A stretch of DNA of 64,000 nucleotides from Sulfurospirillaceae bacterium (GTDB taxonomy: Bacteria > Campylobacterota > Campylobacteria > Campylobacterales > Sulfurospirillaceae): the NCBI GenBank assembly GCA_033723415.1, contig JAWVXD010000003.1, forward strand, positions 160,001 through 224,000, written 5' to 3'. The number at the start of each line of letters is the position of its first letter. Within the stretch, counting starts at the first letter, position 1. Below the pieces are notes generated by a model, which did no database searches, was not told the origin of the DNA, and saw nothing but the letters and a program-made list of their open reading frames with translations. Shown here piece by piece: positions 35,588-52,504 of the stretch. A program made the position numbers and the translations under genes.

Positions 35588-35616
35588 ATTATATCAAAAT
35601 CAACCTTTTGTGTCAA
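35588..35616 (-). promoter_or_regulatory. Consensus sigma70 promoter for the orf178-helicase-xis-int operon
   Basis: TTGACA-17 bp-TATAAT with TG extension on the minus strand. Confidence 0.85.
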
Positions 35617-35704
35617 TATTTTGATGAATTTTTCACTATTTTTATATTTTATATTTTTTTGGTATCATTCTGTGTATATTTTAAACAAATTCAAAAGGAA
35701 CGTT

Positions 35705-36376: not shown

Positions 36377-36547
36377 CTATTTTAGCCCTTTGCGTTTACA
36401 GTAGCGATAAAACCCATTATATGTAATTTGTACATTATTTGGCATCTTGTGACTTAGTATTTTCCAAATGCTTCTCAAGCTCGCACCAGTTTTTACAAAT
36501 TCCTCGATCTCTTGTCTGTACAGATCCAATATACTTACTTTACTCAT
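36377..36547 (-). CDS. 56-aa HTH-like protein (below ORF-track cutoff)
   Basis: GGAGG RBS; MSKVSILDLYRQEIEEFVKTGASLRSIWKILSHKMPNNVQITYNGFYRYCKRKGLK. Confidence 0.65.
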   Translation of the reverse strand: MSKVSILDLYRQEIEEFVKTGASLRSIWKILSHKMPNNVQITYNGFYRYCKRKGLK

Positions 36548-36619
36548 TTTATTCCTCCATTTTCTTTCTTATCTATATTCATAATTCATCACTACTTGCA
36601 CAGTATTTAAACACTTCAA

Positions 36620-36754
36620 ATTTACTTTAAATAAAGCTTATTTGAAGTAAATCTAAGCTTCAAAGATACTTTATTTAAGCTCTATTTGAAGTAAATCTAA
36701 AGCTTATTTAGAGCATATTTGAAGTAAATTTAAGCTCCAAAGATACTTTATTTA
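36620..36754. repeat. AT-rich direct/inverted repeat cluster
   Basis: TATTTGAAGTAAATYTAA at 36639, 36683 and 36716; 39-bp near-duplicate 36639-36677/36716-36754; inverted partial copy at 36620-36633. Confidence 0.8.
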
Positions 36755-36948
36755 GAGCTTATATAAAGCTTTTCAAGGGCTCTTCTAATTTCATGTAAAT
36801 TGTGTAATTCCCAATCAACAAATCTTTTTTTATTGACCATCGAAACATCGTATTTTAGCCTTTCACATTCGTTTTCAAGCTCACTTATTTTCTTCAACAC
36901 CAGTTCGTAAATTTCTTGTGTAGCAGTTGGTAGGATTGGCTTTGTCAT
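36748..36948 (-). CDS. Small coiled-coil hypothetical protein
   Basis: GGAGG RBS before ATG 36948 (MTKPILPT...). Confidence 0.6.
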   Translation of the reverse strand: MTKPILPTATQEIYELVLKKISELENECERLKYDVSMVNKKRFVDWELHNLHEIRRALEKLYISSK

Positions 36949-37052
36949 CTTCTGCCTCCAAAACTCGCTAGATATAATAGCATCGTAAAAAACCATTCAA
37001 AACATTTCCAAATTAAACCTATTCCAGTAAAAACAAGATCTATTAGCTTCAT
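36945..37052 (-). CDS. 35-aa hydrophobic peptide
   Basis: GAGGTGG RBS; MKLIDLVFTGIGLIWKCFEWFFTMLLYLASFGGRR; ATGA overlap with the next gene. Confidence 0.5.
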   Translation of the reverse strand: MKLIDLVFTGIGLIWKCFEWFFTMLLYLASFGGRR

Positions 37053-37126
37053 AATTCCCACCTCTTTATTGTAAATTAATTGTTGTTATCCATATTCATA
37101 ATTGTGTGGTATTGGATACAAAATTT

Positions 37127-37152
37127 ATCTGGGGGCAACTTTGCCCCCGATA
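37127..37152 (-). terminator. Terminator after the pilin genes
   Basis: GGGGGCAA / TTGCCCCC stem just after the stop at 37154. Confidence 0.7.
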
Positions 37153-37153
37153 G

Positions 37154-37660
37154 TTACCAAGATATGATAAGATTTACCGAAGCGGTTAAGGTACCTGCAT
37201 CACAAGTATATTTTCCAGTACCGCTATCAAGGCTACAACCCGTTATAGGGTAAACATTAGGATATAGTGTTACCGTTTCGGTTGATCCAGTCGCCGTTCT
37301 GTTCCAAGGAGAGTTAGACATTACCAAATTTGTTTTTGATGCGTCTTGATAAAACTTCATCCCGTAGGTACTTCCAGTACCATTTGCCTGCATCGTATAT
37401 TGAGTTGCGTTTGTCGTTATAGAATATGATAATCCACTTGAGCAAGTCAGATCGAAAGTCAAAGGGTTCATCACTTCACCAGTGTTGCTCATAACCGTTG
37501 GAACAGTTCCAAGATCAAGTGTGGTACTCAAGTTTGCAATATTGCAACCTCCAGTATAAGTAATTGTTACTGGAACAGTTGTACTTGTAGAACCAGCAAA
37601 CGATACTGTTGTCAAACAAGCCATTAATATAGCTGTTAAAATACTTTTTTTCATCTGCAC
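37154..37660 (-). CDS. Spore coat U (SCPU/Csu-type) pilin subunit
   Basis: Signal peptide, GC...LDLG...C pattern, ends VNLIISW. Confidence 0.75.
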   Translation of the reverse strand: MQMKKSILTAILMACLTTVSFAGSTSTTVPVTITYTGGCNIANLSTTLDLGTVPTVMSNTGEVMNPLTFDLTCSSGLSYSITTNATQYTMQANGTGSTYGMKFYQDASKTNLVMSNSPWNRTATGSTETVTLYPNVYPITGCSLDSGTGKYTCDAGTLTASVNLIISW

Positions 37661-37664
37661 CTCC

Positions 37665-38138
37665 TTACCATGAAATTGTTACATTTAAAGTATCGCTGTA
37701 TGTTCCAGCTGGCGGCAATGGGTTATTATCTGCCATCGCAACTTTTGCATATACATTAATTGTATCGGTTGATCCAGTCGCCGTTCCAGTAATTGTATTT
37801 GCTGTCGTCGCTCCAAGCTCCGTGGTCATACCTGCATCACTGTAAAGTCTATAAGTAATATAATCTGTTCCACTGGCAGCTCTTCTTAATTCACCGTTTG
37901 GATTTCCTCCGCCATCAATTGTTGCTGTCCAATTTAGACCACTATTACAGATAATATCTACATTGAAGTTTGCAGTTGCATCGCTAACACCGCTAAAATC
38001 GAGTGTGAGAGCTGGACTGTTTGTAATGCTACAAGTTTGTTCGGCTGTACCGTTTACCGTTACAGTTCCACCAGTCGTTCCAGCTACTAAACTTATTGCT
38101 CCAAAGAAGAGCATCATAAGACATAAAACCTTTTTCAT
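37665..38138 (-). CDS. Spore coat U (CsuA/B-type) major pilin
   Basis: Signal peptide, two Cys, ITYRLYSD, PAGTYSDTLNVTISW. Confidence 0.85.
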   Translation of the reverse strand: MKKVLCLMMLFFGAISLVAGTTGGTVTVNGTAEQTCSITNSPALTLDFSGVSDATANFNVDIICNSGLNWTATIDGGGNPNGELRRAASGTDYITYRLYSDAGMTTELGATTANTITGTATGSTDTINVYAKVAMADNNPLPPAGTYSDTLNVTISW

Positions 38139-38159
38139 TGTTCCTCCTAAAGTCTAGAT

Positions 38160-38756
38160 TTATTTGCTTTCGCACCTATAAGCATAATTCCCGTGATTTG
38201 TTTCAATCGTTCCGCTTGCTCTTACATTGTCCACCTCCTTAATGTGGTTTGGTAAAACATACTCATTCATCTTCTTATCTGTGATAGATAAGATTTTATA
38301 GTGCATATTCCCACTATTTTTTATTTGAAGTGCATGACCTTTGCAGCTCAATTCAAGTTTTGGTTTTTGAAATTTCGGCAGGATAAAAACGGGAATAGAT
38401 AGAGTCTTTAATACTCTTGTTTGCCCTTCAAACTTATTGATATTCAGCTCTCTTAAGATAAGCCTATAAGATTTTTCTTGGGGTATTAAATTACTTCGTT
38501 TGTTATACACTTTTATCTTTTTTGGAGCTTGTAAGATTCTCGGATATACAACAACTTCATTAGTATTCTCCAACACTTCCTCTCCTTTTGTATCCTGAGT
38601 CCATTTTTTGATGTAAGCTTGATATTTACCGTTATCATCAGCTATGGTAAACTCTTTGTACTTCTTGCCGTATTGAATTTCTACTGGGATTGGATGCACC
38701 TGCAATGCAAAAGCTGCTATACTTGATAGTAGTGACACTAAAACTATTTTCTTCAT
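38160..38756 (-). CDS. Fimbrial periplasmic chaperone (CsuC-like)
   Basis: WTQ..GEEVL, VYP, EKSYRLILREL, LSIPVF, NSGNMH motifs. Confidence 0.85.
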   Translation of the reverse strand: MKKIVLVSLLSSIAAFALQVHPIPVEIQYGKKYKEFTIADDNGKYQAYIKKWTQDTKGEEVLENTNEVVVYPRILQAPKKIKVYNKRSNLIPQEKSYRLILRELNINKFEGQTRVLKTLSIPVFILPKFQKPKLELSCKGHALQIKNSGNMHYKILSITDKKMNEYVLPNHIKEVDNVRASGTIETNHGNYAYRCESK

Positions 38757-40711
38757 TTTCTTTTCTCCTGACAGTTGATTTGAACCTCATTGGGTTCTTT
38801 ACCCTTATTCATAAAATTAACTTTGCAACTTGTATTTGGTATTTGAGGGATAAAATCCTCATATTTTCCTATAAAACCATCGATCCAGAACTCACCGTCA
38901 AAGCCAGTAAAATATTCTTTATCTCCGACTTTAAAAGTTTTTTCATTGTATGGCTTGCCGTTTACTTTGATGGTTCCAGTAATCGTTTTATAAAGAGATG
39001 GATCTAACCAATAACCTTGGCCACTTTTTAGAGTTACTGGCGTGCTTGTAAATTTATTCTTCACATCGGTAGTCCAGTAAGACGGTATTCTCTTTAATTC
39101 CTTATCCTCTAACAAATAAGAGCTTGCTGGATAGATGACATCACCAAAGCCACAATTAATGCCCTCTGCAACTACGCAACCGATAGAACCGCTTATACCA
39201 AGATCCCAAGTTGTCTGATCGCTGATTTTTTGAGCATTAAACCAAAAGTTATTTTGATATTTTGCTTTTAATGATGCTTTGTATGTATCGCTCGTATAGC
39301 CTAAATCACTGGTTTGTTTTGAATAACTGGCTTCATATCCAAAACCTTTATGCTCATCCTCAATTGGCATCGATGTAGCTATGTATTTGCTTTGTCCATC
39401 ATCTTTGCTGGTGTTTGCATAGGTAAGAGTGGTTCTTCTACTCCCAATATCAAAATTCCAAACAAACCTTGCACCTATATTATAAGTATGATCTGTATTG
39501 TTAAAATTTGCATTGATTGAGAGATTGAGATTTTTCCAAAGCATTTTAGAGTAACTTACCCCAAAGAGAGTCTGAGCATTTGTGTGAAATTGAAGAGAGA
39601 TATTACCAAACCCTCCAGATACTCCAGCGTTGATCCTAAAATCACTTTTTTTGTCTTTTAGTATCTGCATTGCACCGATGTAATAGTTTTCAGATGAATA
39701 ACTGTAATCTATTGCTGCATTTTTTTTATTATCGATTTGTAATCCGAGTTTACCAAGAGTAGAGAGATAATCGGCCGTAAGTGCAGTTCTGTTAGTATCA
39801 AAAGCAAACCCAACCGTTAAATTGTCTGTAATTCCCTTTCTATAAAACCCACTGTATTGCATTTTTTGCTTTTCGTCTTTACCGATGGCAAAATCATAAT
39901 CGATGCTATCTTTTGCAAGTATATTTTGGTTGTAAAGAAAAGGAACGTCTATCTCTCTTGCATTCCCAAAACTATCAGTCACAACTATTTTTATGTTGTT
40001 TGAAAAATGGCTTATTGGTAAATCTCTTAAGTTGTAGATACCTGCATTTAAGGTAAGCTTTTGGATTATTTGATCATTGTTGTAGATTTCTACCGTTGAT
40101 TGATCATTGATCACTAACTGATAATCAAAAGTTTTTCCATTTTGAACCATCGCTTTATTTGGAGAGATTTGAACTCCCTCAAGAGCATATCCAGCAGTAA
40201 GATAGCTTCCAGATACAGCATAGACACTTCCAAGCTTGAGTTTTTTTTTCTCAAATTCTTTTAAGATGAAGTAGTTTTCGAGTTTATTTTCTTGCTTATC
40301 CGACAATGTTCCTTGAGTGTAGAATAAAGTATTATAAGCAAAAACTCCACTTCCCAGAGTTGCACTTACACCAGTATCTCTTTGTGCAATAGAGTAATTT
40401 AAAAAAGCGGATGTGCTATCTTTAAAGTATTTCTTTTTTTGTTGCCTAAAAGATAGTACTTCTTTTGATAAACATTTTCTTTTAGGCTTTAAAAATAGCT
40501 TTTCATCACTTTCTTGATACACTCCTAGATCTGATAAGTTTTTAGACGAGCATTTGCCAAAGGTAATATTATCATCAGCTATATACTTGCCGTTATCCTG
40601 AGTAAATAAAAAAGTACCTATTTGTTCAGTTCCAACAAATAGATCTAAAACTTTTGGCTCTGCAAAAAGAAAAATGGGTAAAAAGAGAAAAGCCTTAGTT
40701 AGATGCTTCAA
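38753..40711 (-). CDS. Outer-membrane fimbrial usher (CsuD-like, compact)
   Basis: SAFLNYS, plug STVEIYNND...GIYNLRDLP...IVVTDSFG, YRKGITDNLTVG, TGFDGEFW; likely TTG start at 40711 after GAGGGG. Confidence 0.85.
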   Translation of the reverse strand: MKHLTKAFLFLPIFLFAEPKVLDLFVGTEQIGTFLFTQDNGKYIADDNITFGKCSSKNLSDLGVYQESDEKLFLKPKRKCLSKEVLSFRQQKKKYFKDSTSAFLNYSIAQRDTGVSATLGSGVFAYNTLFYTQGTLSDKQENKLENYFILKEFEKKKLKLGSVYAVSGSYLTAGYALEGVQISPNKAMVQNGKTFDYQLVINDQSTVEIYNNDQIIQKLTLNAGIYNLRDLPISHFSNNIKIVVTDSFGNAREIDVPFLYNQNILAKDSIDYDFAIGKDEKQKMQYSGFYRKGITDNLTVGFAFDTNRTALTADYLSTLGKLGLQIDNKKNAAIDYSYSSENYYIGAMQILKDKKSDFRINAGVSGGFGNISLQFHTNAQTLFGVSYSKMLWKNLNLSINANFNNTDHTYNIGARFVWNFDIGSRRTTLTYANTSKDDGQSKYIATSMPIEDEHKGFGYEASYSKQTSDLGYTSDTYKASLKAKYQNNFWFNAQKISDQTTWDLGISGSIGCVVAEGINCGFGDVIYPASSYLLEDKELKRIPSYWTTDVKNKFTSTPVTLKSGQGYWLDPSLYKTITGTIKVNGKPYNEKTFKVGDKEYFTGFDGEFWIDGFIGKYEDFIPQIPNTSCKVNFMNKGKEPNEVQINCQEKRK

Positions 40712-40916
40712 ACATCGCCCCTCGATCATTAAAGAACCAATCAATATTTACGTTATATATTTGAATTAAATTTCTTAGAAATTGATATGTAATATTGTAA
40801 GTGTCATTTTCAATGTAAGACAGAGTTCTTTGCTTTATGCCGATTTTCTCTGCGAATTTTTCTTGAGATAATTTAAGAGTTTCTCGAATAAGTTTTACTT
40901 TTTCATGTGCTTGCAT
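40695..40916 (-). CDS. XRE-family HTH regulator heading the pilus operon
   Basis: LSQEKFAEKIGIKQRTLSYIEN; AAGGAG RBS. Confidence 0.88.
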   Translation of the reverse strand: MQAHEKVKLIRETLKLSQEKFAEKIGIKQRTLSYIENDTYNITYQFLRNLIQIYNVNIDWFFNDRGAMFEASN

Positions 40917-41143
40917 TGTTTCTCCTTTTTATAATTTAAAATGTTTTATATCTATATTCATAATCAAGCAGATGGGGTATTAAATTACTTCGTTTTACAA
41001 CACAAAAAAGATGGCTTAGAGGTATTAAATTACTTCGTTTCAGATTGAAAAAGCCGATTTTTGGTACAATATTAGAGCAGAAAAGAGTAGGGTATTAAAT
41101 TACTTCGTTTTTAGAGCAAACAATGTAAAATAGGGAGCTTGAA

Positions 41144-41449
41144 ATGATGACACTTATTAAAAATTATCTTTTACTCGTTTTGATAAAAGCTATCCTCAAC
41201 TATATACTACTTGCATTGATTGTGCTTGTCGTATTTGGCGGTTATGCACTTATCACAGATTGGGCTAGTATGATTAAATTTGCAACCGAGATAAGAAACA
41301 ATGAATTTGCTAAAATCATTCTTTGGTTGCCTTTGGTTTTGGCATTGTTTAACAAAGTTGAGGGAAATTTTAATAATGAAAATACAAAACGATATAAAGA
41401 AACCGAACACTTCTTTGAAATGTATGACACAATCGGAATGAAATGGTAA
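41144..41449 (+). CDS. Small membrane protein
   Basis: GGGAG RBS, two hydrophobic segments. Confidence 0.7.
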   Translation: MMTLIKNYLLLVLIKAILNYILLALIVLVVFGGYALITDWASMIKFATEIRNNEFAKIILWLPLVLALFNKVEGNFNNENTKRYKETEHFFEMYDTIGMKW

Positions 41450-41576
41450 AGGGCTATAATTGTGAAAGTAATATCCTCTTTGTTTAATATGGGGTAGGGT
41501 ATTAAATTACTTCGTTTTTCAATGTTGAAGCCTGATTTTGGTATAATGGATCGAAATAAAGAGAAGGGAGAGCCAA

Positions 41577-41729
41577 ATGCCGTTTTTATTACTGATGATC
41601 TCACTATTTCTTTTTGCATTGGTTCACAATTGGTATCATGCAGCGTTAGGTGTATTGATCGCGATTGTTGCTTCGTTGCTTGCAACATACTGGAAGCCTT
41701 TTAGAGACTCTCTTGAAGAGTATTTTTAA
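41577..41729 (+). CDS. 50-aa membrane peptide
   Basis: AAGGGAG RBS; MPFLLLMISLFLFALVHNWYHAALGVLIAIVASLLATYWKPFRDSLEEYF. Confidence 0.6.
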   Translation: MPFLLLMISLFLFALVHNWYHAALGVLIAIVASLLATYWKPFRDSLEEYF

Positions 41730-41743
41730 AATAGGAGTATTCT

Positions 41744-41878
41744 ATGATTTTTAATTTAGTTGCCGGAACTTTTACACTTGTTGCTGTCCTCTTAGCGATT
41801 GCAAAATATCGATATGAGAACGGAATCTCAAAATTTAGCCCTTGGCATCCAGACAAAAAAGAAGAGCCAACCCTATAA
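41744..41878 (+). CDS. 44-aa membrane peptide
   Basis: AGGAG RBS; MIFNLVAGTFTLVAVLLAIAKYRYENGISKFSPWHPDKKEEPTL. Confidence 0.6.
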   Translation: MIFNLVAGTFTLVAVLLAIAKYRYENGISKFSPWHPDKKEEPTL

Positions 41879-41910
41879 AAGGATTGGCGAAGTAATTTAA
41901 TACTGCTGTC

Positions 41911-42267
41911 TTAAAAGTTTTTCCACTTTTTATCGAAATCTTTATCAAACTCTTCAAAAGAACGATCAAAATTGTCCTTATAGACTTTCTCTCCCTTATT
42001 TACTTGTTTTTGAGCTATTATCTTTGTATCAGCTTTTGCAATTGTACTGTTTTTATCATTGTTGCTAGACATCTTTTTAGGCCTTGCTTTTGAGTTTACA
42101 TCTGCTTTATAAAAGCCATCAACTGCATTGTTGAAATCTTTTTGAGCACTTTGATAGCCTGTTTTAAAATCTTCTTTTGATTGTTGAAAAGAGATTTGAT
42201 TGTCACCGACTATAATTAATGTAACCACAAAAGCTGCTACTGCAAATAACCATTTCATTTTACACAC
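41911..42267 (-). CDS. Membrane-anchored/exported hypothetical protein
   Basis: N-terminal hydrophobic segment, charged C-terminus. Confidence 0.65.
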   Translation of the reverse strand: MCKMKWLFAVAAFVVTLIIVGDNQISFQQSKEDFKTGYQSAQKDFNNAVDGFYKADVNSKARPKKMSSNNDKNSTIAKADTKIIAQKQVNKGEKVYKDNFDRSFEEFDKDFDKKWKNF

Positions 42268-42270
42268 TCC

Positions 42271-42837
42271 CTAGAATAAATAGTGTAGTTTTACAAAAAC
42301 TGATTTTTCAGTTTTGCCTTGGATCTTATCGATTCCAACTCCGATTGTTAAAAATGGCACTATGCCAGTGTCATCACCTCCACCAAATTCCGTGTTATCT
42401 AATAACGCTTTGCCAGTCCAAACATTGAACTCCATAGAAGCACCATAGTTGTTGCTATCAGCAAGATACGCCTCTAGCTTTGTATTGCTAAACATAGGTA
42501 ATTTAGTTGTCACCGTGCCGTTTATCGTAGGTTTTGTGGCTGTTTGGGAATGTGTAATTGTTGGGATTTTAGAATACGTTACACCGACACCTAAGCCCCA
42601 ATAGAGAGCATTGTCTCTATGTGTTGAATAAAGAGCTCCTTGGTAGAGATCTTTATCAGCTATTTTTTTAAAGCTAAACATAGAAGATAAATTATCTTTA
42701 GTCTCCATTGCAAGACCAAACTCATAGCTGCTCTGCGAACCGACTGAGGCAAAAATATCTCTTGTGTAGTCTTTTGCCATTGCTCCAGTTGCTACAAGAC
42801 TTGCAACTGCTCCCGATAAAATCAACTTTTTGAACAT
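42271..42837 (-). CDS. Probable small outer-membrane beta-barrel protein
   Basis: Signal peptide ending AMA, alternating beta-strand pattern, C-terminal VKLHYLF; start at 42837 after AAGGAG. Confidence 0.6.
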   Translation of the reverse strand: MFKKLILSGAVASLVATGAMAKDYTRDIFASVGSQSSYEFGLAMETKDNLSSMFSFKKIADKDLYQGALYSTHRDNALYWGLGVGVTYSKIPTITHSQTATKPTINGTVTTKLPMFSNTKLEAYLADSNNYGASMEFNVWTGKALLDNTEFGGGDDTGIVPFLTIGVGIDKIQGKTEKSVFVKLHYLF

Positions 42838-43166
42838 TGTAAACTCCTTATATTTTGTTTTGTTCATCTATATTCATAATCGAAGAAAGTTTTAATGGTG
42901 TTGGGTTAGGGTATTAAATTACTTCGTTTTTCATATTATGGCAGTATTAAATTACTTCGTTTTGTGGGGAGCAAGCACATTTTTTGATGCGGATAACACT
43001 AAATATTAGAACAAAAAAGGCTAAATGATAGGGGAATTTATGTTTTTACGCAATTTTGAACACTTTTATCCCAATCGAGCAAGAGGGGTATTAAATTACT
43101 TCGTTTTTTGATTTTGCAAGTATTAAATTACTTCGTTTTGAATAGAGAGGGAGACTAAGCTCCCTA

Positions 43167-43904
43167 TTAAAATCTTCTAAATCCACTTTGTGTCGAATAC
43201 TCTTTTTCTTGGATTTGAGGATGTAATGTCTTTTTATTTTGATCAAAATTATTGTGCGTTAAGTACGACGAAATAAAAAGTTTAGCATCCTCATAATCTT
43301 TTCGATTGATTATCACCGCAAATGCTTCGATATTCCACCAAATATTTGCATCTACACCGCTATCCCATGCCATTTTGTATAAAACATTATATTTATATTG
43401 CTGGGCATTAAATTTATCTCTTGTGACTCCTCCTCGTGTCATTTCCATATTTTTTGCTGAAAAAGAGTATCCAAATATCGGTATGTCATTAACAGTGCAA
43501 AGTTTTGATATCTTCGTCCAACTTTTCATATTATCGTTCAGCTTGCCATAGATCATTGTATTGGCATCAAGGGAGTTTACCCCGATAGGAAACATTTTAT
43601 TTTGCCAAGTTGCTGGTTTATCTATTTTTCCTCCTTGAGAACTACAATACTCAGCAAATCGCCGATCGTAAAGTTTTTTAAAATTCTGAGTCCAATCTCC
43701 ATTTTTATCTAATTCTCTATTTTTTGTTGCGGTCAATTCATAGAGCTTTGTTTTGTTGTTCCAACTAAACCCTTGTCCCTCTATAAAATCTTTAACCGTT
43801 GTACTTTTTAGAGCTTCTGGAGACGGCATCGATGTAGTACCGCACCCAGAAAATAACATGATCATAGTTGATAGTAAGAATGTCGTTAAAATCGTCTTTT
43901 TCAT
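43167..43904 (-). CDS. Lipoprotein of unknown function
   Basis: Lipobox LFSGC. Confidence 0.8.
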   Translation of the reverse strand: MKKTILTTFLLSTMIMLFSGCGTTSMPSPEALKSTTVKDFIEGQGFSWNNKTKLYELTATKNRELDKNGDWTQNFKKLYDRRFAEYCSSQGGKIDKPATWQNKMFPIGVNSLDANTMIYGKLNDNMKSWTKISKLCTVNDIPIFGYSFSAKNMEMTRGGVTRDKFNAQQYKYNVLYKMAWDSGVDANIWWNIEAFAVIINRKDYEDAKLFISSYLTHNNFDQNKKTLHPQIQEKEYSTQSGFRRF

Positions 43905-43913
43905 GATGTTCTC

Positions 43914-44981
43914 CTAGTAATTTATCATTTCGGTATCGGTTGGCGTATTGGCAGCATTGGTCGTAAGATTGTGATACTTTTTGAGTAACGGTGTCAATGC
44001 TCTTAATATTTTGCCATAAGTTGCTTCCCACTCTTTTGCCTTAAAAATCAGAACTTTACCGTCTTTCGTTCTTGCCTTAAAAGGCATCATCATCTCTGCA
44101 TCACCGTCTATTTTTACGCTCAAGGACTCTACATATTTGACGTTATGAAAAACTGGATAATTCTTATACAAGATTTGTTTAATGATCGGTTTTGCTTGAT
44201 CCAAAAGCTCATCTGCTTTAATTTGTGCATCTCTTGGCAATAGATAAATTGAAGCAAAAGGCACGTTTTTAGTAAAGTCAGATACGAAAAAATATGGATC
44301 TTTCCACGCCCTTTCTTCTTCGATATAAAATGATGGAGACCAATCTGTATATTCCTTTATCTTTGCACCGGATAATTCAAAATACTTAGGAAATTCCTTT
44401 ATATTCAGCTTCCATTTTTCTTTAGCATTTTTGAGATATGGATCTGGAGAAAAGACATCAAAAACTGGCTTGAAAAATTTTGGCGTATAGATTTCAACGA
44501 AATTACCATTTCTCACATACCCGAAAAAATTATGATTATTTATTTTGCAAGATCTTCCCGTCCATCCAATAGTCGCTTTCAACTGAGCGGCTTTTTGAAC
44601 TTTGCCGTTTTCGAGATACTTTTTGATCATCTCTTTTTTTCTATCAATCAGATATCCACTTTTTGCTACACAATATCTCTCTAGCTCTCGTGAGATCGAA
44701 TTGAAAAAATCTCCTAATCTAGGGGTGATAAGGGGATTACACATCATCTTATTTTTTGGCGTAATATTGCCGCAACCGATAGGTATTTCCCGTGTTCTGT
44801 CTAATCGATAAGTGAGAGGCAAACTATCCATAAACTCTTCAAAGTTCATCGCCTTGTATTTTTGAAGATCGCCTTTTTGGATCTTCGGTACTTTAGGAAT
44901 AGCGGATGGCCGTTCTGGTAATGCACAACCACTAAACAATGCTCCTGCAATTGCTACTGTAATTAAAATATTCCCTTTCAT
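43914..44981 (-). CDS. Lipoprotein of unknown function
   Basis: Lipobox LFSGC. Confidence 0.8.
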   Translation of the reverse strand: MKGNILITVAIAGALFSGCALPERPSAIPKVPKIQKGDLQKYKAMNFEEFMDSLPLTYRLDRTREIPIGCGNITPKNKMMCNPLITPRLGDFFNSISRELERYCVAKSGYLIDRKKEMIKKYLENGKVQKAAQLKATIGWTGRSCKINNHNFFGYVRNGNFVEIYTPKFFKPVFDVFSPDPYLKNAKEKWKLNIKEFPKYFELSGAKIKEYTDWSPSFYIEEERAWKDPYFFVSDFTKNVPFASIYLLPRDAQIKADELLDQAKPIIKQILYKNYPVFHNVKYVESLSVKIDGDAEMMMPFKARTKDGKVLIFKAKEWEATYGKILRALTPLLKKYHNLTTNAANTPTDTEMINY

Positions 44982-45020
44982 TTCTTAACTCCTTATATGA
45001 TTTCATTGATATTCATAAAA

Positions 45021-46607
45021 TTACCTGACGATATTAAGCATAGATCCTAAAATACCTGTTGAAGTGGATGCTTTATCGATCAAGTCTTGTTTCATCAGAT
45101 AGTTTTTGTTTGCCGCTATTTTGCTGGCCAACTGCATAGCAAGTCTTGCCATGTCCTGCTTGTTTTCTCTTTGAAACTGATTGATAGCTCTTTTGACATT
45201 ATTTGCCCATTTTTTGCTTTTTGCCTCTCTCATCGCTCGATTAAAGTTCTCTTGTACGCTCTCGCTCGATTCGATATTAAAAGAGATCCTTTGATTGAGG
45301 ATGTATCCCTCACTTTTAGAAAAGATAATGTCGTTGTAGCTGGTATGAACCCTTGGAAAATTAATAATATCTTTGCCTTTCGGTCGCCAAAAATCACTAG
45401 GATCACTTATATATTTTTTTAAAAAGTCGTTTTTACCAGTAATTTTTCTATATAGATATTCTCTCACTCTGTATTGGATCTCTTCAAGAGAGTAGCTGTT
45501 GTTTTTACTCATATCGATGCTGCTAAAAGCCTCAAGATATAATTTCATGAGCTTCTTAAAGTAATCATCGAACTTTTTGTGCTGATTCTCTTTTGAGAGG
45601 TTAATGCCATCGGCATTTAATGATCTATCGATCACGATAATGTTTTTATTTGACATTTCACCGCCAAAAGCTCTCATGAAAATCAAATCTCCGTAAAAAT
45701 GCAATTCTCTTACTGGAGAAATCTCAACAATCGGTTGGGAATTTTTCATCAGTATAAATCTTCCCTCTTGTGGTTGAGTCTGTAAAATATAACGCTTGTT
45801 GAAAAACTTTAAATCATTATCAAAAAAGTTTTTCATCGTAAATACAAAGTTTCCACTCCATCCTCCAGAAACATCAACGATAAATTTACTTCGATAAAAA
45901 GATACCGCGAGATACGTTTGAGGTAGTTCATAGGTTCTGGCACTGACACTTACCTTTGGCAAACCGTAGATAGAAAAAAACTCATTAAACAATTTGTTAT
46001 ATTTGTAGAAAAACTTATCCATTAGAAGATTAGACATAGCCAATATTCTAGCTCTGGCACTCAAAAGCCCGTTTGCACCGCCATAAGCCAATCTCGCTCC
46101 CATCGCCCATTGATTTCCCATCTGTTGAGTCATCGTTTGATCCTGATAATACATATAGTTGCGATTTGCCATCATGGCCTCTTGCTCTGCAAAATTTTTA
46201 AAGCTATTTGGCAAATCAACTTTCCTAATTGGCAGCCAATCCATGAAAGTTCGTGGATCTTTTGTGTATTTATCGATAAACTTTTCTACGAGATAATCAA
46301 TCTCTGGCATCATCATTGTTGCCTGCATATCGATAACCCTTTTTATATTTCTTGATTTAGAGTTACTTTGAGATGTTTCGGAAGATAGTGTTTGCTCTTT
46401 TTCCTTGGATTTTGAAGTTTCAGATCCTTGATTTACCTCTTGCCCTTTTTCATGACTGATCGTTTTTGATGTTTCATTTGTGTGTGATCGATCAACACTC
46501 TTTTGTACCGATTGATCATTTGTTTTCGAGTAATGTTCATCTTGTCCGATTGAGTTTGCAAACAGTGCCGTTGCCAGCATGGTTGCCAATATTAGTATCT
46601 TATACAT
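45021..46607 (-). CDS. Secreted protein of unknown function with S/T/K/E-rich N-terminal region
   Basis: Signal peptide ending ALFA; GAGG RBS; last gene of the relaxase gene run. Confidence 0.8.
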   Translation of the reverse strand: MYKILILATMLATALFANSIGQDEHYSKTNDQSVQKSVDRSHTNETSKTISHEKGQEVNQGSETSKSKEKEQTLSSETSQSNSKSRNIKRVIDMQATMMMPEIDYLVEKFIDKYTKDPRTFMDWLPIRKVDLPNSFKNFAEQEAMMANRNYMYYQDQTMTQQMGNQWAMGARLAYGGANGLLSARARILAMSNLLMDKFFYKYNKLFNEFFSIYGLPKVSVSARTYELPQTYLAVSFYRSKFIVDVSGGWSGNFVFTMKNFFDNDLKFFNKRYILQTQPQEGRFILMKNSQPIVEISPVRELHFYGDLIFMRAFGGEMSNKNIIVIDRSLNADGINLSKENQHKKFDDYFKKLMKLYLEAFSSIDMSKNNSYSLEEIQYRVREYLYRKITGKNDFLKKYISDPSDFWRPKGKDIINFPRVHTSYNDIIFSKSEGYILNQRISFNIESSESVQENFNRAMREAKSKKWANNVKRAINQFQRENKQDMARLAMQLASKIAANKNYLMKQDLIDKASTSTGILGSMLNIVR

Positions 46608-46617
46608 CTTACACCTC

Positions 46618-46971
46618 TTAGCGTTCTCTACCAGCGTTTTTAGACTGCTGTTTGGTTTTGGCTTTATTCTGTTTTAGAGATTTTTCCTCATTTCTTATTT
46701 TTTTGAGTTCACTTTTTATATTTTTTCTCCTCAATTTGTATTGAGTTTTTTCTCGTTTTTTATTCATCTTTTTTGCTTTTTCTTCTTGAGCTTTTTGATT
46801 CATTCTTTTAAAATTATCAATGATCTTTTCAATATCATCTCCACCGTTTTTCGATTTTTCCCAGCTTTGATTTAATTGTTGCTCTTTCCACAAATCTTGG
46901 TTTTGTGCATATTGCGGTTGTTCTTGAGTTTTATACTCTTCAACCGGTTGTTTTTTATCATGTTCGTTCAT
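46618..46971 (-). CDS. Basic coiled-coil hypothetical protein
   Basis: Tightly spaced within the relaxase operon. Confidence 0.65.
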   Translation of the reverse strand: MNEHDKKQPVEEYKTQEQPQYAQNQDLWKEQQLNQSWEKSKNGGDDIEKIIDNFKRMNQKAQEEKAKKMNKKREKTQYKLRRKNIKSELKKIRNEEKSLKQNKAKTKQQSKNAGRER

Positions 46972-46974
46972 CTG

Positions 46975-47223
46975 TTACTCCTCTTCTATTTGAATTTCAT
47001 CAAAATACTTTTCAAGGTATTTCGCCGCAACTTCAAACGACTTCTCTTCAAACTCTTTTATCTCATGATTGGTTAATCCAATCGTTTGAAATAATGCACC
47101 TATGTTGTTCCTCAATGCTCTTGTTTGGACTACATCACGCAATACAAGATTTAAAATTAACTCTTGCTGCTTTTCAAGGTTCTCCAATTTTTCTAAAATT
47201 TGAGCCTTATCTTGTTCGTTCAT
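46975..47223 (-). CDS. Small hypothetical protein
   Basis: AAGGAG RBS before ATG 47223 (MNEQDKAQ), overlapping the relaxase stop region. Confidence 0.6.
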   Translation of the reverse strand: MNEQDKAQILEKLENLEKQQELILNLVLRDVVQTRALRNNIGALFQTIGLTNHEIKEFEEKSFEVAAKYLEKYFDEIQIEEE

Positions 47224-48985
47224 TTTTGATCTCCTTGTTTTTAGATTTTGGTTTCTGCTTATATTCATAATTCTTGTCAATTTTTCTCTCTTGCGCTTTT
47301 ATATCTCTGGCAAGTTTTCCAATACTTTGATTTTTTTGCATTTTAGAGATCATCTTGTGGTTTGAATGAATAGTCTTGAGATCCTTTTGGGTCTGATAGA
47401 TAGCTTTGCCAGTCTCTTTCATGGCTTTCCAAGCTATCTTTGTCGCAAATTTCAAAGTAAATTTTGTTGTGGCTAAAGCGACCGATAATCCAAAAGCCAA
47501 AAATCGCTCTTCGGCACTTCGAGGCTTAAATGACCAATATGTCTTTTTTATATCTTTGGAGAACTTATCTAGTGTTGCGAGTGGCTTAGTCAATGTAAAT
47601 GGAGAGTGTGTGCCTGTTTTTGTCCATTGATTGACCCATCTATCAACTTCTTTGCCATATCCCTTTATCGTTTTATTGAACTTGCTTGGGAGTAATTTCT
47701 CGGTTAATTTCTCGATATGTTTAGCAGCTTCTGGAGAGTCTTTATATTTTAAAAACACTTCTCTACTAACGGCAAGTTTATAAGTGCTGCCCTCTTTAGT
47801 AACCAAACCTTTTGATTTGAGTTGCTCCAGTCGTTGCACTTGCAACATCGTATTCTTGCTAATTGCTTCAAACGAAACATATTTTTGGGTGATAGCTTTT
47901 ATCATTGCCTTGTCTGGATCTAGCTCTCCAAGTGTTAATAGCGTACTATCTATAATGTCGATTTTTGTTTGTGTCTCAAGTTTCCTCAGCTCTTCGATCT
48001 TTTGGAAATTCATGTGTATTTGGAGGGTTCTATCTCGTCTGTCTAAGTCCAATCCACCTTTTACGCCTTTTAGATCTTTCAAGCTTTTGAAGTGCTTTTG
48101 ATTGTTTTTATAGAGATTACTTTGTTCTTGTTTGATCTCTTTGAGAGATTGATATAAGTGACTTTTTTCAACTTCTAATCCGCTACTTTTCTTAGCATTC
48201 TCAATGATACGGGCTTTTTCTTGAGAGTATTTTTCGAGGTCTATTTTGAAGTTTTGCCCATCGATACTTTTTGATATTCCAAGCTTTTCCAGCCCTCTCA
48301 ATCTTTGAGCTACTCTTGTTCTCCAGTAGTCTTTTTGTTTGTCGCTCATCTTGCTTTTATTGAGAGCCCATTCAAATCTTTTCCAACCAAAATGGCCGTT
48401 ATCTTTGTTGATATGCTTCCAAATAAAATTATCAGCTTTTTGGGTATTTGTATAGTTACCCCTCTCGTATTTTTTATTGATCGCATCCATCCTTTTTTGA
48501 TTGCGTTCAATAACTTGTGCTCGCTCTTTTGCATCTTTTGTATATTTGAGTTCTATTGCATCTAATTTGTTAATCCATCCTTTCCCTTTTCCGCTTCTAT
48601 TGAGAGCTTCTTTACTTCCAAAATATGCAATGTGTAGATGTTTGTTTGAACCATCTGGCATATGATGTATAGCATAAACTGCACCCAGCTTTTCTTTTGC
48701 TTGTACACTTCTTTCTTGGATAATATCTTTGGCCATTTGGTGCAACTCTTGGATAGTCAATTGGTCTGTTTGAGGATTGTAAATCTTTATCTCTTGGGCA
48801 TCAAATTTTTGTCCAATGGTATCGGCTGTTTTAAAGTCAATTTTATTGCCGTTGTAGTTGTATAAATTCCTAATTTGTTTATTATCAGTTGTATCAAGAT
48901 ATTTGTATCGCCCATTAACTTTGCCGTTTTCGAGATACTCCAATGAGGCTCTAAGATTACTCACTCTTTGAGTTTTTTCAATCAT
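47207..48985 (-). CDS. HUH relaxase (MOBP-like, divergent)
   Basis: N-terminal SLEY tyrosine, AVYAIHHMPDGSNKHLHIAY 3-His motif; preceded by an RHH gene and oriT-like region. Confidence 0.72.
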   Translation of the reverse strand: MIEKTQRVSNLRASLEYLENGKVNGRYKYLDTTDNKQIRNLYNYNGNKIDFKTADTIGQKFDAQEIKIYNPQTDQLTIQELHQMAKDIIQERSVQAKEKLGAVYAIHHMPDGSNKHLHIAYFGSKEALNRSGKGKGWINKLDAIELKYTKDAKERAQVIERNQKRMDAINKKYERGNYTNTQKADNFIWKHINKDNGHFGWKRFEWALNKSKMSDKQKDYWRTRVAQRLRGLEKLGISKSIDGQNFKIDLEKYSQEKARIIENAKKSSGLEVEKSHLYQSLKEIKQEQSNLYKNNQKHFKSLKDLKGVKGGLDLDRRDRTLQIHMNFQKIEELRKLETQTKIDIIDSTLLTLGELDPDKAMIKAITQKYVSFEAISKNTMLQVQRLEQLKSKGLVTKEGSTYKLAVSREVFLKYKDSPEAAKHIEKLTEKLLPSKFNKTIKGYGKEVDRWVNQWTKTGTHSPFTLTKPLATLDKFSKDIKKTYWSFKPRSAEERFLAFGLSVALATTKFTLKFATKIAWKAMKETGKAIYQTQKDLKTIHSNHKMISKMQKNQSIGKLARDIKAQERKIDKNYEYKQKPKSKNKEIKNERTR

Positions 48986-49391
48986 TTTTCACCTCTTTAT
49001 TTTCTTTACTACTTTCAACTTTAAAGCCTGCATCGGAATAGTGTTTTTGAGTAATTTCAACTGCTTTTCTCCAAGCTGCTTCCTCCGCTTTTGTTGCCTC
49101 ATCTTTATCTCTAACAACACTATGAAATGCTTTAACTTGATAACGAGTTGCTACGCTATAAAGTGTGTTTTTTGCAAGCAAAGAGTTGTATCTATTGAGT
49201 TCCTTTTCAATTCGTTTTTCTATATTTTCTAACCGTTTATCCATTACTGCTAAATGGTCTGTGATCATCCCATTGACATACTGCTGTAAAGCATCTCTTA
49301 CCACATCGCTTTTACTGATTTTGTTTATTCTCGCCAGCTCTTCAAGCGCAAAATGAATACCCTCGTCTATTTTTACATTAATGTGTGTCAT
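48978..49391 (-). CDS. Ribbon-helix-helix relaxosome accessory protein (MobC-like)
   Basis: HINVKIDEGIHFALEELARINKISKSDVVRDAL RHH pattern; overlaps relaxase start. Confidence 0.75.
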   Translation of the reverse strand: MTHINVKIDEGIHFALEELARINKISKSDVVRDALQQYVNGMITDHLAVMDKRLENIEKRIEKELNRYNSLLAKNTLYSVATRYQVKAFHSVVRDKDEATKAEEAAWRKAVEITQKHYSDAGFKVESSKENKEVKND

Positions 49392-49429
49392 TTTCTCTCC
49401 TAAGTGTCTATTTATCGATATTCATAAAA

Positions 49430-49590
49430 AGTCGTAATACGCAAATTTTAAAGATGTAATACGGCTTTCAACCCAAACCGCAAAGGTTTGACCCGACACA
49501 TAATATGTGGCTGACTTGTCTTAAAAGAAAAAAGCAAACTTTTTTCTTTTTTACATCCTTGTACTTCGCACTCGGCATTGGGTTGTTAAG
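49430..49590. other. Candidate oriT
   Basis: Between divergent relaxase and coupling-protein operons; perfect 12-bp IR at 49523-49550 followed by TACATCCTTG; hairpin CAAACC/GGTTTG; GTAATACG twice. Confidence 0.6.
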
Positions 49591-49659
49591 GGAAAAGAGC
49601 CTCAACAATTTAATAAATTATGAATATAGATGAAACATAAATTTACACAAGGAGTAACA

Positions 49660-49953
49660 ATGTCAATTATAGATACCGTACTAAAAAAGTACGATACAAG
49701 CGGCTGTGAGAAAAAATCATCATTGAGCGTAAAAATAAACGCAAATCTTGCCAAAGATATTGATACAGTTTGCAATCATCTTGGTATTTCAAAAAGCCAA
49801 CTGGTAGCGGATATTATTGAAGTATCTGGCATATCAAAAAAAGCGGAAGAGATAGCGGTACTAAAGGAAGAAAAAGAGACTTCAAATAAAAGTCAAACTG
49901 GTAATTTTTCTCCCTTAAAAACCAATCAAGCGACAGATAGTAAAGGAGAGTAA
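49660..49953 (+). CDS. RHH/CopG-like DNA-binding protein
   Basis: SSLSVKINANLAKDIDTVCNHLGISKSQLVADI; AAGGAG RBS before ATG 49660. Confidence 0.65.
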   Translation: MSIIDTVLKKYDTSGCEKKSSLSVKINANLAKDIDTVCNHLGISKSQLVADIIEVSGISKKAEEIAVLKEEKETSNKSQTGNFSPLKTNQATDSKGE

Positions 49954-49955
49954 AA

Positions 49956-50405
49956 ATGGCATTAGGATTTTTACATGAAAATTGGCTTTTTCGTGCTTTT
50001 GAGAACATAGAAACAAATGTAAAAATGGAGACTAAAGGTTGGAGTCTATATGCAAGTATTATTGGATCGCCATTTATAGTTTCGTCGATAATCTATTTTA
50101 TCCATAAAATAATGGAAAGAAGAGCGATGCAGTTAGCACGAATTTCTCTTAGACATTTTAGCTGGATTGACATATCAATAATTCCTTACATTGGTATTGG
50201 GGTAGTCCTCACATTGTTGGTAGCTTTTTTGTTTGGAAAAAAATTTTTAGATTATGTCAAAGAAGAGAATAAAAAGCTCATCAGCGATGAGTATATAAGA
50301 GGTGCAAAATTAGTTTGCAATGATGATTTTAATGATCAGTTTACTGAATACGATGACTTTATAGAGATAAAAGTTGTTGATGAACAATGTACGAGACAGT
50401 TTTAA
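49956..50405 (+). CDS. Membrane protein resembling the N-terminal anchor of a coupling protein
   Basis: Two TM segments then YIRGAKLV, like the RG motif that precedes the TraD/TrwB cytosolic domain. Confidence 0.65.
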   Translation: MALGFLHENWLFRAFENIETNVKMETKGWSLYASIIGSPFIVSSIIYFIHKIMERRAMQLARISLRHFSWIDISIIPYIGIGVVLTLLVAFLFGKKFLDYVKEENKKLISDEYIRGAKLVCNDDFNDQFTEYDDFIEIKVVDEQCTRQF

Positions 50406-50418
50406 GAGGGAGTAAAAA

Positions 50419-51693
50419 ATGAGTATTATAATTCCAAAAGTAGCAACAAGGCAACACATAGGTTTTATAGGAACAACTGGTTCGGGAAAAACTCAAGGTA
50501 TGATGCAAATATTTGAGGCTTTTTTTCATTCAAAAAAAATCATAATCGATGTGAAAGGAGATTATGTTTCAACATTTAAAAAAGAAGATGATTTGATTTT
50601 TTGTCCGCTTGATGAACGAACTATCAAATGGAATATTTTTAACGATATTGAAACATACCAAGATGTAGCAAACATTGCCTTATCTTTAATTCCAGAAAAT
50701 CCAAAAGTTAGTGATCAATATTTTGATCGAGCTGCAAGAAGTGTTCTTGAGGGTGTTTTAATAGGCTTATCAAAAATGCAAAAACCAAGTAATAAAATGA
50801 TATGGGAAACTATTACATCGCCCAAAAATATTATAGAAATTATGAAAACAGATGATGAAGCAAAACAGAAAATGGAAGCTCACATCGATGACGGCTTAGA
50901 TAAACAAACTAGAGGTATCATAGGTACAATTTTGGCGAATGCTGGAGGGGCACTGGAAGCTCTTGCAAATATGGATGGTGATTTTTCTTTTAAAAAGTGG
51001 ACTCAAAATGAAATAAATAAAAAAAGCATCTTTTTACTGGGTGAAGAGAGAATTTTGGACTCTATGCTGCCGCTTTATAGATTAGTTGTAGAGATAGTTG
51101 CAGGAGAGCTTTTGTCAATGCTAGATGATGAGAATAGAGAATTGTTCTTTTGGTTAGATGAGTTACCAAGACTTAAAAAACTGCATAAGGTTATAGATCT
51201 TATGACATTAGCTCGTTCAAAGGGCGGTAAAGTTGTTTATTCCGTTCAAACAATAAAACAGTTGGAAGAGCAATACAAACGAGAGGGGATGGTCACTATC
51301 CTTGATACGACTAACACCAAATTTATTTATAGAACATCCGATGCTCAAGATTTAGAAAAAATCCTTGGACAGCAAGAGGTTTTAGAATATACTGAGTCTC
51401 GTTCTTGGGGGCCGAACGATATGAGAGACGGTGGTGGTCATACAAAACCTAAAAAAATAAAATATGTTGTTTTAGCCTCCGAAATACAAAATTTAAGACC
51501 TTTAGAGTTTTATGTAAAAAGCATCGCTCCATATGTCACAAAAGCACGATTAGAGTATATCGGAAGAGATCCAAAATGTTTAAAATTTGTCCCAAACATT
51601 AGAAAAATTAAAAAAGCAGGAGATTTTTATAAAAATCTTGTGAAGCTAACCCCAGTAAATAGTGAAAAGATTGATTTTGAGGAGTTCTTGTAA
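50419..51693 (+). CDS. Type IV coupling protein ATPase domain (TrwB/TraD-like)
   Basis: Walker A GTTGSGKT, IIDVKG, PLDERTIKWN, Walker B FWLDEL, ARSKGG, ASEIQNL. Confidence 0.9.
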   Translation: MSIIIPKVATRQHIGFIGTTGSGKTQGMMQIFEAFFHSKKIIIDVKGDYVSTFKKEDDLIFCPLDERTIKWNIFNDIETYQDVANIALSLIPENPKVSDQYFDRAARSVLEGVLIGLSKMQKPSNKMIWETITSPKNIIEIMKTDDEAKQKMEAHIDDGLDKQTRGIIGTILANAGGALEALANMDGDFSFKKWTQNEINKKSIFLLGEERILDSMLPLYRLVVEIVAGELLSMLDDENRELFFWLDELPRLKKLHKVIDLMTLARSKGGKVVYSVQTIKQLEEQYKREGMVTILDTTNTKFIYRTSDAQDLEKILGQQEVLEYTESRSWGPNDMRDGGGHTKPKKIKYVVLASEIQNLRPLEFYVKSIAPYVTKARLEYIGRDPKCLKFVPNIRKIKKAGDFYKNLVKLTPVNSEKIDFEEFL

Positions 51694-51695
51694 TC

Positions 51696-51718
51696 GAGGA
51701 GAGTTTCGAACTCTCCTC
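51696..51718. terminator. Hairpin between convergent genes
   Basis: GAGGAGAGTT-TCG-AACTCTCCTC. Confidence 0.75.
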
Positions 51719-51883
51719 CTAAATACCAATTAAACGATGGATTATCCCAACTAGCAGATCTTTAAAAAGAACCATTATCGCTTCGCTTTTAAAAGCAAAT
51801 AACCACATAAAAGCAACTGCCCATAAAATTTTCTTTGATAAAAGATTTCCTAAGAGCTCACCAAAAAATATTCTCATCAACAT
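51719..51883 (-). CDS. 54-aa hydrophobic peptide
   Basis: AAGGAG RBS; MLMRIFFGELLGNLLSKKILWAVAFMWLFAFKSEAIMVLFKDLLVGIIHRLIGI. Confidence 0.55.
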   Translation of the reverse strand: MLMRIFFGELLGNLLSKKILWAVAFMWLFAFKSEAIMVLFKDLLVGIIHRLIGI

Positions 51884-51924
51884 AACTAACTCCTTTTTGG
51901 AAGATAAGAGAGAAGGCTTTAAAA

Positions 51925-52290
51925 TTAAATTGTTGTTAAATAATGTAATTTCCTCTTAACTTGTATGCCGTTTTCATCAATCATTTCTCTCATGTTTTGC
52001 TCTTCGATTTCAAGCCCTAAATTTTCCCCATGCGGACGGGCGTATCTAATCCCTTTTTTTGCTAACTCTTCGGCGAACATACTTGCAAGTTCTGTATTAA
52101 ACACATCTCTCCGATTTTCTGTTACCGCATGAAAATTAAAAAGACTATCCCCTAGTCCTATTTTTGTGTATAGACTTGTTATAGATTTAAGATTGTTCTT
52201 TTTCATAACTTTTTTTAACAACCTTTCGCTTTTTAAAACTGTATTTAAATCAAAATACTTAATATGTGTAATAATCTCTTTTGCTTTCAT
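51925..52290 (-). CDS. Hypothetical protein
   Basis: 121 aa with AAGGA RBS. Confidence 0.65.
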   Translation of the reverse strand: MKAKEIITHIKYFDLNTVLKSERLLKKVMKKNNLKSITSLYTKIGLGDSLFNFHAVTENRRDVFNTELASMFAEELAKKGIRYARPHGENLGLEIEEQNMREMIDENGIQVKRKLHYLTTI

Positions 52291-52504
52291 TTTTTATCCT
52301 TTTTAGTTTAAATTTTTGATATGTAGCTAATCTTGCTAACCATTTTTTTGCACTCTCTCTTTTTTGTTCTTTGCCTATATTTTTACTCCTTTCGTCATTC
52401 TCGATTTTTATAATATTGTCTCCTTTACCTATATTCATAAAACTATCAATCGGCCGTAGCCAACTTGATAGAACATTGCTTCTTTTCTTGTCGTATTTTG
52501 TATA

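Follow-up and report, generated by a model that had tools for sequence, protein, structure and literature searches.

In SXT/R391 and IncC elements, many transfer operons are turned on via a repeated site by a repressor-controlled factor, SetCD or AcaCD, both being FlhDC-like activators that bind upstream of the -35 position. Late promoters of bacteriophage T4, served by gp55, gp33 and the clamp gp45 (PMC7892883; here and below, published systems are described from partial texts of the cited sources), consist of a lone -10-like 8-mer, TATAAATA, located at -13 to -6, with no -35 element. The small factor gp55 comprises a sigma-2-like domain with pockets for the A residues at -12, -9 and -8, a linker, and a C-terminal motif for clamp binding; without that motif, activation is impaired though not abolished (PMC7892883). 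Mobile elements may also encode sigma factors of their own. Sig7-8 of the integrative element Tn916 (bioRxiv 10.64898/2026.10.01.756105) switches on transfer functions in Gram-positives; it consists of two subunits and acts at one main autoactivated promoter that also drives xis/int. SigN of the Bacillus subtilis plasmid pBS32 (PMC6751061) is LexA-repressed and autoactivating and has its own regulon; its abstract mentions neither a clamp tail nor single-box promoters. MuC of phage Mu (bioRxiv 10.1101/2025.01.04.631326) activates the σ70 holoenzyme from a dyad site and, for late genes, needs the host beta clamp, which it engages via an N-terminal QxDLF-type motif; it thus provides an experimental precedent of late transcription dependent on the host clamp. 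Here, we describe a 25.5-kb element integrated at a tRNA-Met gene of a Sulfurospirillaceae bacterium (genome G000), located within a stretch of 64,000 nucleotides (nt) of contig JAWVXD010000003.1 (positions 160,001 to 224,000; hereafter, the window). A box repeated in front of its operons is, judging from its sequence context, very probably a promoter; we favor the view that it is a single-box promoter probably read by host RNA polymerase carrying the product of an element gene, orf178, as a predicted sigma-region-2-only factor rather than as an activator.

The exact box is the 10-mer TTATGAATAT, with the 8-mer TATGAATA as its core. Ten exact copies were present in the window versus 0.83 expected, and none of 100 shuffles reached this number. 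Nine are in the element; the tenth, at 10276, is antisense inside the aguA open reading frame (ORF) and is the only non-element copy within the window, as an earlier sequence-only reading of this DNA had noticed. Genome-wide, 33 exact copies were found, i.e., the nine in the element and 24 in the remaining 2.4 Mb, and all six genomic occurrences of TTATGAATAT followed by A, C, or G and then GAT are located in the element.

All element boxes but one are on the minus strand. The box at 36570..36584 (TTATGAATAT-aga-TA, with its predicted start) is located 37 nt before orf56, and that at 37087..37101 precedes, by 49 nt, a short ORF running into orf82. Further boxes are found 47 nt before an operon of helix-turn-helix (HTH), usher, and pilin genes (40949..40963), 42 nt before an outer-membrane-like gene with ATG at 42837 (42865..42879), 37 nt before two lipoprotein-like genes (45004..45018), and 36 nt before an operon of ribbon-helix-helix (RHH) and relaxase-like genes (49413..49427), while the single plus-strand copy (49618..49632) lies 42 nt before a divergent operon that includes a coupling protein gene. 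At 52426..52440, a box is positioned 65 nt downstream of a perfect σ70 promoter (52505-52533, upstream on the minus strand) and 150 nt before orf121. These eight copies had been listed by the sequence-only reading, and all were recovered at the same places and strands; the distance of 36-49 nt to the start codon, which it gave for seven of them, was measured as 37, 49, 47, 42, 37, 36, and 42 nt, and after the 52440 copy, where it considered the start uncertain, the next assignable start is 150 nt away. The list was incomplete in that it missed the exact copy at 47261-47270 (box 47256..47270), inside the end of a 592-amino acid (aa) protein gene and 47 nt before the next ATG, as well as two weaker copies. 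One of these has a single mismatch (38800..38814, core 38805-38814) and is located at the end of the usher gene, 58 nt before a start; the other (TTATGCTTAT-agg-TG, 38173..38187, core 38178-38187) is at the end of a 198-aa pilus gene, 49 nt before an SCPU pilin gene.

A Shine-Dalgarno sequence plus start codon (SD) followed within 65 nt of the box at eight of nine exact element sites, compared with a background of 0.145 and with 4 of 24 host sites. The bases five and six positions after TATGAATA were a pyrimidine and then a purine (YR) in all nine exact element sites, versus 22% in the background and 6 of 24 host sites. Taking this purine as +1 places TATGAATA at -13 to -6. The box-to-start spacing then equals that of the T4 P23 late-promoter oligonucleotide (PMC7892883), and A is kept at -12, -9, and -8; the box differs from that of T4 in having G at -10. 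No conserved positions were found between -59 and -16 in ten sites, in agreement with the earlier remark that a -35 element is missing. Predicted leaders are 22-44 nt long, except for the one of 136 nt at 52440. A σ70-like -10 element was present between box and start codon at only 2 of 11 sites, and in the 120 nt upstream it was absent from 6 of 11 sites while being present in 83% of 346 host operon leaders. The 8-mer itself, whose frequency in front of host genes the sequence-only reading had proposed to check, occurs in just one of these 346 leaders. No tandem boxes 20-50 nt apart were found. By contrast, one perfect σ70 promoter precedes the orf178 operon and another lies at 52505-52533. 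Judging from sequence, the element thus appears to have two promoter classes, a host-type one for early genes and a private one for late genes. The motif string occurs in published papers, none of which, among the matches listed and judging by titles and beginnings of abstracts, concerns such a promoter.

Relatives of the element are found in genomes of Sulfuricurvum, Sulfurimonas, and Arcobacter, which belong to the order of the host. The exact 10-mer is present in 16 of 19 loci whose orf178 homologs are at least 58% identical (a set that includes some duplicates), and the other three loci begin within 55 nt of the gene. The box is usually ca. 40 nt before orf56. Loci L002-L038 contain 20 unique exact sites, 17 of them before an SD, and 15 of these 17 keep the YR step. 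In L007, exact boxes stand at both places where the window boxes are degenerate (38173..38187 and 38800..38814). With a wider profile, the orf178 family was detected in 20 of the 401 genomes sampled from the order; the flanks of 11 of these loci were fetched and scanned for repeated boxes. Four coupling-protein-bearing sister elements repeat a box of their own, TCTGAATA in G013, TGTGAATA in G003, and TATGTATA in G472 and G086, each differing from TATGAATA at -12 or -9. When sites were required to have both YR and SD, 9 of 12 passed for TATGAATA in the window, 3 of 9 in G013, 8 of 10 in G003, 5 of 7 in G472, and 6 of 11 in G086, with none passing for any element paired with the box of another; the variants were discovered in the same data in which they were counted. 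At least one match to the box-plus-SD pattern was seen in 79 of the 401 genomes and at least three only in G000 (six, five of them in the element) and G362 (four), both of which carry close orf178 homologs.

Some relatives differ in organization. Smaller ones (L003:5882-8883, L016:465-3478, and L018:4102-8826) consist of integrase, helicase, orf178, repressor, and orf56 genes with one box and variable cargo, whose translations, inspected by eye, resemble products of anti-phage defence genes. At L029:2061-2089 and L034:8509-8537, two box-like words are arranged back to back on opposite strands between divergent genes, with no orf56 match there.

The best candidate for a reader of the box is the product of orf178 (34880..35416, minus strand), the first gene of the early operon. 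It had been named among possible regulators in the sequence-only reading, and a relative is carried by every element with a repeated box (the window element, G013, G003, G472, and G086). We consider it likely that orf178 determines how the box is read. The protein has no Pfam, PHROG, or NCBIfam match; PDB-sequence and Atlas searches with it or a homolog yielded nothing usable, and it was not found in viral contigs with the query used. A search of 1.84 billion proteins gave 39 representative homologs at E ≤ 0.001, and no sigma family was listed for any of 60 family members. DD and W-x-x-x-R-x6-N residues are invariant. A PF04542 search of the genome matched RpoD and FliA only. The orf178 model has a mean predicted local distance difference test score (pLDDT) of 86, with residues 1-140 confident and a low-confidence linker thereafter. 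When it was compared with 48,161 chains using an exhaustive structure aligner, 12 of 50 rows were sigma factors aligned over region 2 (Z 3.6-4.6, all rows at Z ≤ 4.9), among them SigK (Z 4.6, root-mean-square deviation (rmsd) 3.7, 79 residues aligned). The count includes BldN and CnrH rows, which we take to be sigma factors, and leaves out two further rows that are presumably sigma-like. The model of a long homolog, P0055, which is 24% identical to orf178, has a pLDDT of 90.5. BldN was its top row (Z 5.4, rmsd 3.1, 77 aligned), 10 of 50 rows were sigma factors, and the list included chain F of the T4 late complex, presumably gp55 (Z 4.6, rmsd 3.9, 93 aligned); in a second structure look, the top eight rows were all sigma factors. 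Across the two models, the sigma matches have Z of 3.6-5.7, which is below the trust level stated for the tool and may reflect a common helical arrangement only.

The C-terminus of orf178, beyond the linker, reads QPSLFNFVA and contains a beta-clamp-type motif, QPSLF, at residues 170-174 (34895..34909, minus strand). The clamp consensus is QL(S/D)LF or a QxxLxF-type hexamer with a tolerant position 2 (PMC11139829). Of 68 family members, 32 have a loose version of the motif within their last 25 aa, compared with 9 of 1927 host ORFs. Its presence depended on length (30 of 40 members of at least 165 aa versus 2 of 28 shorter ones); it persists in members only ca. 22-25% identical, and three members have an exact QLSLF. 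No clamp or gp33 family match was obtained among the 35 element ORFs scanned, orf56 being without assignment; as a recognisable clamp gene is thus missing from the element, the tail would have to bind that of the host, DnaN. Homologs of 205-225 aa (P0055, P0043, P0057, and others) have an extra helical domain, at about residues 134-195, for which no clear fold match was found, and a terminal hairpin with the clamp-type motif.

The following scheme can be proposed. orf178 heads an operon with the helicase, a small gene, and the integrase behind a perfect σ70 promoter that faces a CI-like repressor gene. Loss of repression would free this promoter, and orf178 would be made together with excision and replication proteins. 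It would then bind core polymerase and redirect part of the polymerase pool to the approximately ten boxes, opening them and switching on the relaxase-like, coupling protein, envelope, and pilus genes as well as orf56, with transcription predicted to start on the purine six bases after TATGAATA (among others, at 36570, 40949, 42865, 45004, and 49413 on the minus strand and 49632 on the plus strand). Host polymerase would read the boxes only when carrying orf178. The QPSLF tail may bind the host beta clamp and bring more transcription to replicating DNA, as the gp55 tail does with gp45; we rate such a boost, with a tail that is optional in the family, at slightly less than an even chance.

Judged from sequence and models, the system would work like T4 late transcription: a lone box at -13 to -6 without -35 would be read by a small factor with a predicted sigma-2-like domain, a linker, and a C-terminal clamp-type motif. 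It differs in that orf178 has no detectable sequence homology to gp55 and is, by the tests run, not a member of its family; in that the box is TATGAATA, or one of the sister variants, rather than TATAAATA; and in that an integrative element takes the place of a lytic phage, the clamp would be that of the host, and no gp33 equivalent was identified among the element ORFs scanned. As in Tn916, an integrative element's own sigma would switch on transfer functions, and as with SigN of pBS32, it would be element-encoded, under repressor control, and in charge of its own regulon. Unlike in Tn916, separate boxes number about ten, and a σ70 promoter beside a CI-like repressor gene precedes the genes for the factor, helicase, and integrase. 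With MuC, orf178 would share the use of the host clamp by a mobile-element factor, whereas its motif is C-terminal and its predicted fold sigma-2-like.

The T4-late-like promoter reading is supported by the fixed YR step at T4 spacing, the lack of -35 information, the near-absence of the box from host leaders, its conservation, and the element-specific variants. Several results weigh against the overall scheme. All fold matches have Z below 6 and none is significant, with unrelated helical proteins tying or leading; in a second look for orf178, in which 53 chains were compared, no sigma factor was among the nine rows listed. Foldseek searches against PDB and viral models gave no match at E ≤ 0.001 (E > 0.8 everywhere), profile comparison with T4 gp55 gave a probability of 2% (with a single-sequence template and thus limited sensitivity), and the orf178 profile did not score above shuffles against 30 FliA region-2 sequences. 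Because of the low Z values and the gp55 and FliA profiles at noise level, the sigma assignment is a likely reading and not a result. Pro was admitted at position 2 of the strict tail pattern once the orf178 sequence had been seen. Short, tail-less forms still stand beside a box (L003-L005 and L016-L021), and clamp coupling is therefore not essential to the system. L032, L036, L037, G316, and G436 have an orf178 relative with no clear box nearby in the stretch fetched. In G013 the start spacing is looser, with no more than 5 of 11 sites having YR at the exact spacing. The box variants sort uncleanly on a tree of 22 proteins, which has long branches: a TATGAAT core is shared by members of both main clades, and G472 and G086, which both use TATGTATA, do not group as sisters. 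Several copies are found at the ends of genes within operons, a location also compatible with an RNA-level signal. The counts are not independent, because the relatives are kin.

The sequence-only reading had offered a single-box promoter or an activator site, read by a factor from the element, a helper element, or a phage; the single-box promoter is supported, orf178 is the best candidate reader, and the activator-site and helper-phage versions fit less well. An activator could redirect the σ70 holoenzyme to the box; it might be orf178, in the manner of MuC or SetCD/AcaCD, or else orf56 or a different HTH protein. MuC, a clamp-binding protein, does activate σ70 polymerase at promoters without -35 (bioRxiv 10.1101/2025.01.04.631326), the sigma fold match of orf178 is weak, and in most relatives the box is accompanied by orf56. 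We nevertheless find such an activator unlikely: the box itself occupies the -10 position, a TAnnnT downstream usually finds neither space nor a match (the box-to-ATG distance goes down to 33 nt in G003), and the box is not dyad-like. In L029 and L034, a box and an orf178 relative occur with no orf56 match in the stretch fetched, and orf56 is itself downstream of a box. SetCD and AcaCD differ in their site, the box here being at -10, and no match to such a family was found. A reader of host origin is still less credible, at a few chances in a hundred: the host does have σ70 and FliA, and CGAT- or CAAT-like bases follow the core in two copies, but host leaders hold the 8-mer just once, the YR and SD pattern is missing at host copies, and 399 of 401 genomes have at most two box-plus-SD matches.

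It is quite improbable, if a little less so than a host reader, that the word acts in RNA, where an RNA-binding protein or nuclease of the element would recognize it in the 5′ leader and thereby set translation or processing. The copies within operons at upstream-gene ends (38187, 38814, 47270, and in L007), always in the sense orientation and 33-58 nt before a start, would suit this role, whereas a YR step kept at T4 spacing is a signature of transcription starts, divergent operons have boxes at their heads, and a σ70-like -10 is missing upstream of 6 of the 11 sites. A leader peptide from the ATG in the box was considered and rejected, since the ORFs run for 5-97 codons without a common frame. 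The element could, lastly, be a satellite whose boxes are read by the gp55-type late sigma of a helper phage. The core is one position off TATAAATA, and a gp55-like gene is listed for a Campylobacter phage (PMC2853527). The boxed genes, however, are for mobilisation and a pilus and not for packaging, sister elements vary the box, each with its own orf178 relative, and a viral scan (13 of 64 parts) showed a single box copy in each of 80 listed loci; we give a helper phage hardly any weight, as with a host reader. The preferred reading remains a single-box promoter read by polymerase carrying orf178.

Element sigma factors (Sig7-8 of Tn916 and SigN of pBS32) and clamp use by MuC are already known. 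A literature search on sigma factors, clamps, and mobile elements, with few subscription journals and no supplements, covered T4, MuC, and Tn916 and returned nothing on the orf178 family. If the proposed reading is true, it gives a function to a protein family that lacks annotation and occurs in 20 of the 401 genomes sampled from the order, and the gp55 design extends beyond T4-like phages. Element-encoded sigma factors (Tn916, pBS32) would be joined with host-clamp use in transcription (MuC), so far shown separately. The natural series of boxes varying at -12 and -9 would be a ready test of promoter reading by a lone region-2 domain and would offer a number of small sigma-promoter pairs that may be orthogonal. 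More speculatively, and with perhaps one chance in three of being right, one family of integrative elements in Campylobacterales independently built a T4-type late switch, with a host-clamp-tethered, sigma-2-only factor that transcribes transfer genes mainly from replicating excised copies and with factor-box pairs that diversified at the flipped-out -12 and -9 positions into orthogonal codes preventing cross-activation between neighbors.

The element is bounded by a 48-nt perfect direct repeat of the tRNA-Met 3′ end: attL (31990..32037, plus strand) is the 3′ part of the tRNA-Met gene (31959-32035), the sole Rfam match within the element, and attR (57520..57567, plus strand) is its partner (repeat family D9). 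From the tRNA inwards, the minus strand carries a tyrosine integrase (32066..33331; PF00589, E 5e-13; phrog_1), a small gene (33347..33577) without family match that is putatively excisionase-like by its position between helicase and integrase, an AAA_25 primase/helicase-type replication protein (33586..34866; PF13481, E 3e-14; phrog_239), and orf178 with its σ70 promoter (35588..35616; TTGACA-17-TATAAT, with TG). The divergent CI-like repressor gene follows on the plus strand (35621..36373, likely start 35708; PF07022, E 7e-8), and then orf56 on the minus strand (36377..36547), which encodes a small HTH-like protein with a DUF5338 match below cut-off. The translation-start regions of orf178 (35402-35438) and orf121 (52276-52312) are 86% alike, both beginning MKAKE-, and each gene follows a perfect σ70 promoter.

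Beyond orf56 are chaperone-usher (SCPU/Csu-like) pilus genes (37154..40744, minus strand; PF05229, PF00577), including the 198-aa gene, whose chaperone role is suggested by position, then envelope-type genes, the RHH and relaxase-like genes, and the divergent coupling-protein operon. The 592-aa relaxase-like protein (47207..48985, minus strand) is so named for an H-x-H stretch and its position next to the RHH gene; it has 30 unnamed homologs, has no family match, and matched none of 100 related genomes. A relative of its gene is listed for Hydrogenimonas thermophila. With the queries used, the 592-aa protein was not found in plasmids, nor were orf178 and orf56. The coupling protein is of the TrwB/TraD type (50419..51693, plus strand; PF10412, E 2e-74). 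Of the "transfer" and "pilus" operons named in the sequence-only reading, the coupling protein stands, while the pilus is of the chaperone-usher and not the conjugative type.

The integrase, att sites, and coupling protein are hallmarks of an integrative and conjugative element. VirB families had no match among element ORFs in Pfam and NCBIfam scans, and the VirB4 profile PF03135 found nothing in the genome, the same profile giving a match in only 1 of 14 control genomes. In the window (42271-51693) and in sister elements L050, L051, L272, and L276, a coupling protein and a relaxase-like gene are present without recognisable VirB4 or mating-pair genes, in whose place are several unannotated envelope proteins. 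Such an element either is mobilised in trans or uses an unrecognised channel. At the far end, after the coupling-protein operon, a non-specific endonuclease gene is followed by a restriction-modification pair, an Eco47II-type restriction enzyme and a C5 methyltransferase fused to a MerR-type HTH domain (54412-57224), with no boxes in front of these cargo genes.

Other repeats were also seen. AAAACGAAGTAATTTAATAC is present in nine direct copies with 0-1 mismatch between 38483 and 43139, some of them paired 32-33 nt apart, with one inverted partial copy near 41885; elsewhere in the genome there are only two matches, with three mismatches, and the repeat is shared by L007 and L008. Short, variable genes are flanked by these copies, an arrangement suggestive of cassette recombination sites or a protein-binding array. 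Just upstream of the orf56 box, 36613-36768 is dense in direct and inverted units of 12-17 nt (TTTACTTCAAAT three times), an array that may be operator- or centromere-like. Finally, the 3′ end of the helicase gene (33630-33732) has a 103-nt, 92% identical inverted duplicate at 57238-57340, adjoining attR, which holds repeated CGGATAAG/GATAAGTCC units and is a candidate replication origin or iteron set.

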